From positions 81,396 to 145,395 of the forward strand of contig JANRKF010000013.1 of NCBI GenBank assembly GCA_033763575.1: 64,000 bases of DNA, written 5' to 3'. Position 1 is the first letter of the stretch. Every line of letters starts with the position of its first letter. Positions 13,373 to 48,118 of the stretch are shown here, one piece after another. Below the pieces are notes generated by a model. That model had not been told where the DNA came from and did not search any database. It saw only the letters and a list, made by a program, of their open reading frames with translations. The translations under genes were made by a program, and so were the position numbers. The stretch comes from Alphaproteobacteria bacterium. GTDB taxonomy: Bacteria > Pseudomonadota > Alphaproteobacteria > Rickettsiales > SXRF01.

Positions 13373-13464
13373 GTCATTGCGAGGAGGCAACGCCAACGAA
13401 GCAATCCATCTCTCAACAAGCGGGGGCATGGATTGCCGCGCTCCCGGTGGTCGCTCGCAATGAC
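13373..13464. repeat. Family-2 palindromic element (GTCATTGCGAG...CTCGCAATGAC)
   Basis: gtcattgcgaggaggcaacgccaacgaagcaatccat...atggattgccgcgctcccggtggtcgctcgcaatgac has terminal and internal inverted repeats. Related copies are at 48027-48105, 39212-39284, 24031-24114 and 32050-32114. Confidence 0.75.
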
Positions 13465-37914: not shown

Positions 37915-38172
37915 ATGGAAGTGGTCAACTACACGGAAGCGCGTGCGAATTTGAAGCAACTCATGGATAAAACCTATGACGATTCGACGCCGATCATCAT
38001 CACCCGCCAGCGCGGCGCAAAGCCTGTGGTGATGATGTCGCTCGACAGCTATAATTCCATGGAGGAGACGATGTATCTGTTGCGAAGCCCCGCGAATGCA
38101 AAATTCCTGCGTGCGGCGGTGGAAGACGTGCGCAAGGGAAAATACAAGAAGCATAAATTATTGCCTGCATGA
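37915..38172 (+). CDS. yefM: Phd/YefM-family antitoxin
   Basis: MEVVNYTEARANLKQLMDKTYDDSTPIIITRQRGAKPVVMMSLDSYNSMEETMYLLRSPANA is canonical YefM. Confidence 0.88.
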   Translation: MEVVNYTEARANLKQLMDKTYDDSTPIIITRQRGAKPVVMMSLDSYNSMEETMYLLRSPANAKFLRAAVEDVRKGKYKKHKLLPA

Positions 38173-38429
38173 ATGTCTGCTTCCATCCCAAGGCGTGGCA
38201 GCAATATGTCGAATGGCAGGTTTATGACAAGCAGGTGCTCAAAAAAATCAACCACCTCCTCAAAGACATCCAGCGCTCCCCATTCGAGGGTATCGGCAAG
38301 CCCGAACCCCTCGCCTATGAGTTTTCCGGTTTCTGGTCGCGGCGCATCACCGATGAGCACAGGCTGGTTTATACTATCGATGACGGCAACATTATCATCG
38401 TGCAATGCCGTTATCATTATGATGGCTGA
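38169..38429 (+). CDS. yoeB: Txe/YoeB-family toxin
   Basis: ...AWQQYVEWQVYDKQVLKKINHLLKDIQRSPFEGIGKPEPL...GFWSRRITDEHRLVYTIDDGNIIIVQCRYHY(DG). ATGA overlap with yefM. Confidence 0.9.
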   Translation: MNVCFHPKAWQQYVEWQVYDKQVLKKINHLLKDIQRSPFEGIGKPEPLAYEFSGFWSRRITDEHRLVYTIDDGNIIIVQCRYHYDG

Positions 38430-39386
38430 ATGATGGCTGAATTTCTTGAAACCCCCGCCCATCCGCTCGCCTACCGCACACAGGAAGGCAGCGGCCCCAC
38501 GGTGATGTTCTGCACCGGCTTCATGTCGGACATGGCGGGCACCAAGGCCGAAACGCTTTCCACCCATTGCGCCGCACGCGGGCAATCCTTCATCCGCTTC
38601 GATTATTCCGGCCATGGCCAGTCCGGCGGCGATTTCATGGACGGCACCATCGGCCAGTGGAAACGCGATACGCTGGCGGTGCTGGACGAACTAACCGAAG
38701 GGCCGGTGGTGCTGGTGGGCTCCAGCATGGGCGCATGGCTGGCCCTGCTCGCGGCGATGGAAAGGCCCGAACGCATCAAAGCCCTCATCGGCATTTCCGC
38801 CGCGCCGGATTTCACCGAACGGCTGATCTGGCAGAAGCTCGCCGCCGCCCAGCAGCAGGAATTGCTGGAAAAGGGGGTGTTTTACGCGCCATCCTGCTAT
38901 GGTGAAGCGCCCTACCCCATCACCCGCAGGCTGATTGAGGAGGCGCGGTCGCACCTGCTTATTACTCCCTCCCCATCCGCCTGCGCGCAAGCGCTGCGGC
39001 GGGACAAGTTAGGGGGAGGGTCGGGGCTGCGCCCCCCGAAGCCACTGGACATAGGGGGGTGGAGGCATCCACGCTCGGATGGAGAAAATAATGCCCCCCT
39101 CCTAACCTCCCCCCTACAGGGGGAGGATATTCCCATCCACCTGCTACACGGCACAAGGGATGAGGATGTGCCGGTGGAAATCGCCCATTTGCTGGTTGAA
39201 AGGTTAAAATCGTCATCCTGCGGCCCACAACGTGGGAGCACAGTATCCATGGATTCTGCGCAGCCTTCCGGCTCGCAGAATGACAATACAAGAATACAAC
39301 TCGCCCTGATTGAGGGCGGCAACCACCGCTTAAGCGAACCCGAAGATTTGCGCTTGCTTTGCCGTACCGTTTGTGATATTAGTTAA
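38430..39386 (+). CDS. Alpha/beta-fold hydrolase carrying two in-frame repeat-element insertions
   Basis: GSSMGAW nucleophile elbow, HGTRDEDVP (Asp) and GGNHRLS (His). The frame stays open across elements at 38966-39126 and 39212-39284. Confidence 0.75.
   Translation: MMAEFLETPAHPLAYRTQEGSGPTVMFCTGFMSDMAGTKAETLSTHCAARGQSFIRFDYSGHGQSGGDFMDGTIGQWKRDTLAVLDELTEGPVVLVGSSMGAWLALLAAMERPERIKALIGISAAPDFTERLIWQKLAAAQQQELLEKGVFYAPSCYGEAPYPITRRLIEEARSHLLITPSPSACAQALRRDKLGGGSGLRPPKPLDIGGWRHPRSDGENNAPLLTSPLQGEDIPIHLLHGTRDEDVPVEIAHLLVERLKSSSCGPQRGSTVSMDSAQPSGSQNDNTRIQLALIEGGNHRLSEPEDLRLLCRTVCDIS
38966..39126 (-). mobile_element. Family-1 palindromic element inside the hydrolase CDS (inverted relative to 21824-21958)
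   Basis: Its reverse complement aligns by eye with 21829-21954 at about 85% identity. The terminal hairpin loop holds an extra ~33-bp palindrome (ccgcctgcgcgcaagcgctgcggcgg). Confidence 0.8.
39212..39284. repeat. Family-2 variant element inside the hydrolase CDS (GTCATCCTGCG...CTCGCAGAATGAC)
   Basis: gtcatcctgcggcccacaacgtgggagcacagtatccatggattctgcgcagccttccggctcgcagaatgac. It has the same termini and central atccatggat core as 13373-13464. Confidence 0.7.
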
Positions 39387-39411
39387 CAATATTTTAATAT
39401 TGTGAGTTTTT

Positions 39412-47314: not shown

Positions 47315-48118
47315 TTAAACCGTCCCGAAGCTCTTAATAAGGCTCCCCGCCAGCATATACCAGCCGTCGATCAGCACAAAGAAAATAATCTTGAACGGCA
47401 GCGAGATCACCACCGGCGGCAGCATCATCATCCCCATCGCCATCAGGATGGAGGCCACCAGCATATCGATGATGATGAACGGGATAAACAGCAGGAAACC
47501 GATCTCGAAAGCGCGTTTCAGCTCACTAATCATGAAGCCGGGAATGAGCACGCGGTAGGGCGTATCGGCAGGCGTTTCGATGGTGAGGCCCGGCGACATA
47601 TCGACAAACAGTTTCAAATCCTGCGCCCGCACATGCGCCAGCATGAAGGCATGAAACGGCGCGCCGATTTTTTCCAGCGCCTCTTTCTCGTCAATGCGCT
47701 CTTCCAGCAACGGCTGCACGCCCTGCTCATACGACGCCTGAAACACCGGCGCCATGATGAACAAAGTAAGGAACAGCGCCAACGAAATGAGCACCTGGTT
47801 GGGCGGCGTCTGTTGCAGGCCGAGCGCGCTTCGCAGCATGGAGAGCACGATGATGATACGCATGAACGAGGTCATCATCACCAGGATCGAAGGCGCAAGG
47901 CTGATGACCGTCATCACGATAATGAGCTGGATCAGCCGCCCGGTCGCGCCGCCGCTGGTGGTGTTCCCGAGGTCGATATTCATCGACTGGGCAAAGGCAT
48001 TATCAGTGTGCATAAACAAGGTTATCGTCATTGCGAGGAGGCATAGCCGACGAAGCAACCCAATTTTCTGATGGCTGGATTGCTTCGCCTGCGGCTCGCA
48101 ATGACGTACATTAAACAT
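47315..48118 (-). CDS. fliP: Flagellar type III export protein FliP
   Basis: ...LIQLIIVMTVISLAPSILVMMTSFMRIIIVLSMLRSALGLQQTPPNQVLISLALFLT is canonical. ATG 48118 overlaps the fliO stop. Residues 5-31 are encoded by a family-2 element. Confidence 0.85.
   Translation of the reverse strand: MFNVRHCEPQAKQSSHQKIGLLRRLCLLAMTITLFMHTDNAFAQSMNIDLGNTTSGGATGRLIQLIIVMTVISLAPSILVMMTSFMRIIIVLSMLRSALGLQQTPPNQVLISLALFLTLFIMAPVFQASYEQGVQPLLEERIDEKEALEKIGAPFHAFMLAHVRAQDLKLFVDMSPGLTIETPADTPYRVLIPGFMISELKRAFEIGFLLFIPFIIIDMLVASILMAMGMMMLPPVVISLPFKIIFFVLIDGWYMLAGSLIKSFGTV
48027..48105. repeat. Family-2 palindromic element inside the 5' end of fliP
   Basis: gtcattgcgaggaggcatagccgacgaagcaacccaattttctgatggctggattgcttcgcctgcggctcgcaatgac. 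Confidence 0.8.

Follow-up and report, generated by a model that had tools for sequence, protein, structure and literature searches.

How does a palindromic repeat come to lie inside the coding sequence of an intact enzyme gene, and what has kept it there? The question is raised by a 64,000-nt stretch of DNA from an alphaproteobacterium of the order Rickettsiales (SXRF01; GenBank assembly GCA_033763575.1, contig JANRKF010000013.1, positions 81,396 to 145,395 of the forward strand), hereafter the window, in which an ABHD10-like esterase gene carries a 75-nt inverted repeat that is translated as 25 residues. The genome (G000) measures 1.94 Mb in 35 contigs, with 55.6% G+C. Here, comparison with orthologues shows the element to be an insertion into a loop of the esterase gene. 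It is, in our assessment, very probably a non-autonomous inverted dimer of a long-stem class, related to the CGTC-tagged repetitive extragenic palindromes (REPs) and to the Ssn-related motifs recognised by the Ssn family of small GIY-YIG nucleases, that was inserted once by Ssn-dependent spread and has been retained in a loop tolerant of it. The gene and its inserts, in window coordinates, are:

38430..39386, + strand: host hydrolase gene, an intact open reading frame (ORF) for a 318-aa ABHD10-like alpha/beta hydrolase with two unrelated in-frame inserts
39211..39285, + strand: the element under study, a 75-nt inverted dimer of two CGTC-tagged hairpin units, encoding 25 residues
39211..39249, + strand: left unit, C-GTC, ATCCTGCG, G, CCCAC-AAC-GTGGG, AG, CACAGTAT, CCA
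39250..39285, - strand: right unit, T-GTC, ATTCTGCG, A, GCC-GGAA-GGC, TG, CGCAGAAT, CCA
38966..39126, + strand: first insert of the gene, not part of the element under study, from an unrelated G/C-tract palindromic family

The insertion was established by comparison with relatives. A six-frame search found the host gene in all but one of 40 related genomes, and in every match the alignment is lost at query residue ~179, is picked up at 232-263 and then once more at 288-314. Both insert segments are missing from all of the aligned orthologues (19/19), including two of the same genus, and among 58 aligned homologues only P0002 has an insert at the element's site. The initial annotation of this DNA had named an insert-like segment conserved in genomes that lack the repeat family as the finding that would contradict it; the only sharer, P0002, comes from a genome with CGTC units. 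Contigs assembled from a drinking-water metagenome run, which may be the source sample, span both junctions at low coverage, and none of them contains an empty-site joint.

The element is oriented with its tags outward and its CCA tails abutting as CCA|TGG. At 39212-39284 the DNA reads GTCATCCTGCG...ATCCA|TGGAT...CGCAGAATGAC (in full, GTCATCCTGCGGCCCACAACGTGGGAGCACAGTATCCA|TGGATTCTGCGCAGCCTTCCGGCTCGCAGAATGAC), and the flanking tag bases, C at 39211 and A at 39285, bring it to 75 nt, or 25 codons, with no stop and with the frame kept. Apart from one mismatch, the 11-nt ends are inverted copies of each other; the window has 7 occurrences of the terminal pattern at one mismatch or fewer, where 1.5 would be expected, and both ends of the element are among them. 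Compared with shuffled sequences, folding gives z scores of -3.7 as RNA and -3.5 as DNA, and an Rfam scan of 38900-39400 returned no relevant match. The right unit retains a perfect 8-bp lower stem along with its tag and CCA tail; it is the unit-pattern match at G000:C13:120647-120679, and its AGCC-loop-GGCT variant recurs in three other genomes (G216, G098 and G013). In the left unit the lower stem has decayed to 6/8 pairs and the 5-bp upper stem is intact in the DNA fold; its layout of G, 5-bp stem, 3-nt loop and AG is also found in the 36-nt units of relatives.

Sequence, ORF and invariant residues agree with the initial annotation's description of a palindromic selfish element lying in frame between the Asp and His blocks and unrelated in sequence to the first insert. 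Two of its statements needed adjustment. The peptide that it quoted, SSSCGPQRGSTVSMDSAQPSGSQNDNTR, corresponds to residues 261-288 of the 318-aa ORF; 25 of the ~28 residues are contributed by the element, and the remainder is a 6-nt gain that coincides with an adjacent tandem duplication. Its grouping of the element with the copies at 13373-13464 and 48027-48105, which have the ends GTCATTGCGAG/CTCGCAATGAC, stands at the level of a superfamily, in which the element and these copies share only YGTCAT/ATGACR ends and an ATCCA/TGGAT core; it does not extend to the stem class, which has a nuclease gene of its own. The tandem duplication, AATACAAG AATACAAC, lies at 39285-39300, directly after the element, and at this point the window is 6 nt (two codons) longer than the metagenome locus L021 described below.

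The host ORF matches the Pfam families Hydrolase_4, Abhydrolase_1 and Abhydrolase_6, and P0003, a homologue without inserts, matches PDB 6ny9, the human-type mycophenolic acid acyl-glucuronide esterase ABHD10, with an E value of 4e-48. The nucleophile (S99, in GSSMG), the catalytic Asp (D244/D246, in HGTRDEDV) and the catalytic His (H299, in GGNHRL) are invariant in the 58-sequence alignment, and all are kept in the host protein. An AlphaFold model based on the same alignment has a mean predicted local distance difference test (pLDDT) score of 83.4, with most of the core above 90, and scores of 38-57 for the residues of the first insert (~180-232) and 48-64 for those of the element (~263-288), which are flanked by a helix at 249-262 and a strand at 289-294. 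The element is thereby predicted to occupy a disordered surface loop, just before the strand that leads to the catalytic His.

Purifying selection acts on the host gene: against L021, which holds its closest homologue, nonsynonymous (dN) and synonymous (dS) divergence over 240 codons are 0.20 and 1.16, for an omega of 0.17. Over the insert (26 codons) the corresponding values are 0.26, 0.33 and 0.79, so that the inserted peptide is nearly free of constraint at the protein level. From the presence of two selfish elements in one gene, the initial annotation had drawn either strong tolerance of loop insertions or relaxed selection. Relaxed selection finds no support in the omega of 0.17, in the retention of the catalytic residues or in the in-frame inserts of the same superfamily in at least 10 other housekeeping genes, with two in alaS, and for these reasons tolerance is the better reading.

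The insert that is shared with the element's site allows its history to be followed. P0002, a 272-aa protein that is 73% identical to the host protein and is its closest relative in the large protein database, is encoded on a 122-kb Joint Genome Institute (JGI) metagenome contig (locus L021); it lacks the first insert and has an insert at the element's site. At 3638-3727 of L021 this insert is a dimer of the same class (class E, defined below) that is better preserved than the window copy, with a spacer of 14-17 nt and a DNA-fold z score of -5.1; relative to it, the window copy lacks 12 and 3 nt. The right junction, ATGAC|AAT, is identical in the two, as is the reading frame, and the window protein (P0001) groups with P0002 as its sister in a 30-homologue tree (ultrafast bootstrap (UFboot) 82 / approximate likelihood-ratio test (aLRT) 77). 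Since junction and frame are identical and the proteins are sisters, a single insertion in a common ancestor is the simplest account. The first insert of the window gene, which is missing from P0002 and from all other homologues, is younger than the shared element. Another CGTC unit lies in the neighbourhood of L021, and hence the P0002 genome also carries the superfamily. A metagenome scan yielded no further hydrolase relative above 46% identity besides P0002. A more distant esterase homologue, P0016 (locus L022), has a CGTC dimer of the short-loop form at L022 3557-3628; this dimer shares the ATCCTGCG stem and lies in a different loop of the enzyme, close to the position of the first insert in the window gene.

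Within the genome, ~57 two-ended GTCAT...ATGAC elements of several stem classes were found. Of these 57 dimers, 31 have C and 26 have T before GTCAT, and ATGAC is followed by A or G in 56 and by C in one. A first detector of hairpin units was noisy (360 units against 112 in a shuffle), and the stricter detector that replaced it gave 155 against 21; among 78 units assigned to a class, 53 have the CCA tail. The element belongs to a low-copy "long-stem" class (class E), ATYCTGYG...CRCAGRAT, whose unit pattern, ATYCYGYG..CRCRGRAT, has 10 genomic matches where shuffled sequence gives 1.0. Three other dimers, at C21:56782, C33:24759 and C2:8446, have the same architecture, namely GTC, ATYCTGCG, an inner hairpin, CGCAGRAT and CCA, followed by a spacer and the mirror image. 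No near-identical copy of the element was found in the genome by blastn-short, so that the link to the family rests on this architecture. Beyond this genome, class E is present in 19 of the 201 genomes of the order that were sampled, a single one of which can hold as many as 81 units, and also in gamma- and beta-proteobacteria, Actinobacteria and others.

The upper stem of class E is variable and complementary at once. Among the 54 distinct 36-nt units from the order (genomes G013, G034, G098, G135, G162, G164, G208 and G216; loci L030-L041), 34 are fully paired in the 5-bp upper stem in one fixed register, and these 34 comprise 30 different 5-mers; shuffling the partners gives 4.6 paired stems, and never more than 10 over 1000 trials. 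Class E as a whole is thus characterised by upper stems that vary and still pair. Many class-E apical loops read GCGAAGC or similar.

Insertion into coding sequence is widespread in this genome. In-frame inserts of the superfamily were found in carB, alaS (two), mtaB, a trmJ-family gene, ubiE, truB, nadC, a family-4 uracil-DNA glycosylase (UDG) gene and the N-terminal domain of cysG, and a sulfate-binding protein has an additional copy in its N-terminal or signal-peptide region. With so many in-frame inserts, two elements in one gene reflect a genome-wide habit and not decay of the gene. The sites of the in-frame CGTC dimers are:

G000 C24:39917, C30:6807, C30:7497, C33:129846, C24:77550 and C6:32474
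G000 C6:61669, C30:34393, C30:908, C2:30842 and C10:55640

The same genome contains six small GIY-YIG genes besides uvrC. Five of the six lie between inverted CGTC units, with a different stem class for each, and the five stem classes that bracket them are the five repeat classes dispersed through the genome. The five bracketed nucleases are 94-108 aa long, share 43-64% identity with one another and match Pfam PF01541 at 54.8-60.8 bits. Against NCBIfam models, with their cut-offs, and against the PDB, they gave neither a match nor a relative, and so no usable family name. The cassettes are:

C15:39244-39594: Ssn-like cassette (L023)
C35:~125877-126229: Ssn-like cassette (L024)
C24:134812-135164: Ssn-like cassette (L025)
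C15:5007-5380: Ssn-like cassette (L026)
C24:138757-139125: Ssn-like cassette of class E (L027, L198), with the nuclease gene Ssn5

Ssn5, the nuclease gene of the element's own class, is a ~94-aa single-domain GIY-YIG gene at C24:138803-139084 on the minus strand, with two class-E units around it. The upstream unit, GTCATCCTGTG-GCTTGCCGCAGGCAAGA-GCACAGGATCCAT, is followed immediately by the ATG, and the other, TGGATCCTGCG-CTACTGCTGCGCAGTC-CGCAGGATGAC, supplies the stop codon as the TGA in its terminal GGATGAC. The upstream unit (GTCATCCTGTGGCTTGCCGCAGGCAAGAGCACAGGATCCAT) closely resembles the left unit of the element (GTCATCCTGYGGC...GAGCACAGKATCCAT). In two other genera (G015, 67% identical; G098, 59%), the best Ssn5 homologues also have class-E units on both sides, and Ssn-like genes are present in 85/201 genomes from the order. 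The 38-nt unit upstream of Ssn5, GTCATCCTGTGGCTTGCCGCAGGCAAGAGCACAGGATC, is identical at G015:C5:120127-120164 and G000:C24:139088-139125; the Ssn5 proteins of these two genera are just 67% identical. At two of the cassettes, C15:39244-39594 (351 nt) and C24:134812-135164 (353 nt), long imperfect direct repeats (38/42 and 47/55 identical) flank the cassette and are copies of the beginning of the neighbouring gene; two further cassettes that were checked lack such repeats.

A scheme consistent with these observations may be proposed. The dimer would be a nuclease-less derivative of the Ssn5 cassette, analogous to a miniature inverted-repeat transposable element (MITE), and would have entered the esterase gene once, in an ancestor common to the window organism and that of P0002. 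For its spread the dimer would rely on a cognate Ssn nuclease, a role that Ssn5 may fill; the members of the family tested to date bind the hairpin in single-stranded DNA and nick a few bases upstream of the CGTC tag. Selection would then let survive only stop-free, in-frame insertions in tolerant loops. After insertion, the left unit would have decayed and the spacer between the units would have been lost in multiples of three bases.

Several points weigh against this reading. Neither the element nor the other dimers have a target-site duplication, the empty-site comparison included, and the best direct repeat near the element is 6 nt long, at distances of 25 and 16 nt, which falls short of the classical MITE pattern. 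No target motif is conserved at the element or at the other dimers, the flanks being merely AT-rich, and the lack of a near-identical copy leaves recent activity of the class in this genome unsupported. The five nucleases are putative members of the Ssn family (CDD cd10448), assigned from their size, their Pfam GIY-YIG domain and the hairpins that bracket them, and Ssn-driven mobilisation of repeats is unproven in the literature, mobility of the motifs having been left as a hypothesis (PMC11893778). Moreover, published Ssn makes one nick per unit, on the strand of the forward motif, and each strand of a dimer would therefore be nicked once at its outer edge; a one-strand nick per unit does not by itself give excision. 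The genome itself is a metagenome assembly in 35 contigs, and the contigs that span the junctions possibly come from its own source sample. Finally, between the window and L021, in a comparison of one sequence pair and 75 aligned bases, the insert is identical at 60/75 bases (80%) against 41% at host synonymous sites, and its changes are spread evenly over the codon positions (6, 5 and 4 of 25 each). Third positions have changed in 4/25 codons of the insert and 112/240 of the host (Fisher p = 0.003). High identity without codon periodicity is not predicted for an insert that is merely tolerated and decays passively.

This last pattern would also arise if the two genes had been hit separately at a shared site, either by insertions of their own at a hot spot or by periodic overwriting of a resident copy from other family members (through gene conversion or re-homing after an Ssn nick), and the conserved framework would then be a family consensus and not a mark of descent. 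We regard such separate events, and the reading of the framework that goes with them, as unlikely, while noting that the differences between the window and L021 lie mainly in the upper stem, where two pairs are swapped on both sides (CCCAC/GTGGG vs CGCGC/GCGCG), that upper stems are hypervariable yet complementary family-wide, that P0016 acquired a class-E dimer in another loop of the same enzyme, and that one survey reports the same genes to be hit repeatedly across taxa (PMC3733652). The base-for-base identity of the right junction and the shared frame are harder to reconcile with two events, no target motif was found to direct repeated insertion, and the sister relationship of the two proteins makes one event the most parsimonious; only two lineages bear on the matter, the metagenome scan having added no closer relatives. 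The conservation at the nucleotide level without codon periodicity could likewise follow from co-option, in which the sequence or hairpin is selected for a role in cis, for instance by folding as mRNA or DNA and so influencing how the esterase is expressed, or by serving Ssn as a target through which recombination at the locus is modulated. The perfect lower stem, tag and CCA tail kept in the right unit fit such a role, as does the behaviour of the Neisseria NTS repeats, which modulate transformation and recombination near genes. Co-option is nonetheless improbable: the left lower stem is down to 6/8 pairs, the two species have spacers that are unequal by 12 and 3 nt, Ssn acts on neither RNA nor double-stranded DNA in vitro (PMC11893778), no Rfam family matches, and the pattern comes from the single pair and 75 aligned bases already given.

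An ancestral hydrolase loop lost by most relatives, or a palindrome arisen by chance in coding sequence, has very little to recommend it. The loop at this site does vary by a few residues among orthologues; yet the segment is missing from 19/19 orthologues and is carried by P0002 alone among the 58 homologues, it matches unit by unit the intergenic repeats of this genome and of 18 others in the order, units of its class bracket a nuclease gene, and neither folding z scores of about -3.5 to -3.7 nor 10 unit-pattern matches against 1 expected are what chance would give. A single insertion of a long-stem CGTC dimer, spread with the help of an Ssn nuclease and retained in a tolerant loop, remains by a good distance the most plausible account in our judgement.

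On the excess nucleotide conservation one further suggestion may be built, which is speculative and which we hold to be doubtful: that the copy within the gene is more than an inert relic, selection or Ssn-triggered copying from other family members preserving its hairpin framework at the DNA level long after insertion, and its upper stem being renewed with complementarity restored each time. If this were true, coding copies would be live substrates of nuclease/hairpin systems that repeatedly rewrite a 25-residue loop of an enzyme, and the presence of five separate nuclease/hairpin specificities in one small genome would be explained. The excess conservation is in itself a small hint of something other than simple decay in such copies. 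The element provides a clean and datable case of a hairpin repeat in an enzyme loop that has been translated through a speciation event outside Rickettsia, in which the intragenic copy is tied to a specific nuclease gene of the same genome. The decayed left unit and intact right unit provide a natural substrate pair for studies of Ssn specificity, and annotators may take low-complexity protein loops in these alphaproteobacterial metagenome genomes to be repeat insertions. Elsewhere at the locus, two small ORFs stand directly upstream of the hydrolase gene (window ~37915-38429) and by eye resemble a YefM-type antitoxin and a YoeB-type toxin; the putative toxin ORF ends at 38429 and abuts the hydrolase start at 38430.

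Among known systems, the CGTC-tagged REPs are close in form. As set out in their description (PMC3733652), they have a CGTC tag that is often TGTC (CCTC is allowed), 8-9-bp stems that nearly always begin with AT, loops of 4-5 nt and a CCA tail, occur mostly as inverted dimers and mostly in alpha-proteobacteria, and fall into families CGTC-1 to CGTC-4; intragenic dimers encode 20-30 residues (Di Nocera, De Gregorio and Rocco 2013, PMC3733652), and the repeats are concluded there to be without a dedicated transposase. The element agrees with this description in its tags (CGTC in the left unit, TGTC in the right), its 8-bp stems starting with AT (8/8 pairs on the right, 6/8 on the left), its CCA tails and inverted dimer, its length of 25 residues and its alphaproteobacterial host. 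It departs from it in the loop, with 13-16 nt between the arms of the lower stem in place of the 4-5 nt given there; within this segment, behind a small internal loop, there is a second stem, the hypervariable upper one, which ends in a loop of 3-4 nt. L022 has the short-loop form of the stem, and the element is a variant of the CGTC-REP class, not a canonical member.

In Neisseria the corresponding repeat is the NTS, CGTCATTCCCGCGMAVGCGGGAATCYRG. SsnA, a nuclease of 94 aa with a single GIY-YIG domain, binds it in single-stranded DNA and places a nick a few bases upstream of it (Chenal et al. 2025, PMC11893778); the motif typically lies on both sides of ssnA genes (NTS-ssnA-NTS), and SsnA homologues differ in specificity (PMC11893778). 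The repeats described here have the same unit layout (CGTCAT, palindrome, ATCC), a gene of the same kind (~94 aa, GIY-YIG) between two inverted units, and several nuclease/hairpin specificities side by side, as read from the genes. The Rickettsia palindromic elements (RPEs) are similar in being in-frame palindromic inserts in unrelated metabolic genes that leave the host fold intact, a genome-wide habit alike in both (PMC10969869); in the REP survey, RPE-4 and RPE-6 of Rickettsia conorii are equated with CGTC-4 and CGTC-1 (PMC3733652), and the link to the element runs through this equation. Unlike RPEs (RPE-1 to RPE-10, ~150 bp; PMC10969869), the element is 75 bp long, and unlike Rickettsia its host is a free-living-type alphaproteobacterium, known from the metagenome of drinking water, with a genome of 1.94 Mb and 55.6% G+C. 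With the REPIN/RAYT and IS200/IS605 systems, the element has in common inverted hairpin doublets, a small single-copy enzyme gene flanked by repeats, an enzyme that recognises a hairpin in single-stranded DNA, and the absence of a target duplication; it differs from REPIN/RAYT in having a CGTC/TGTC tag and not GTAG, and a GIY-YIG nuclease in place of a Y1 transposase or RAYT. A PF01797 search found no Y1 transposase or RAYT in the genome, and a REPIN-type mechanism is therefore rejected. Classical MITEs share the inverted termini and differ in having a target-site duplication. The phenomenon is thus one already described, to which the element adds a further example with a long-stem CGTC unit, outside Rickettsia, and the conservation of a translated copy at the nucleotide level is its sole feature beyond the published picture.

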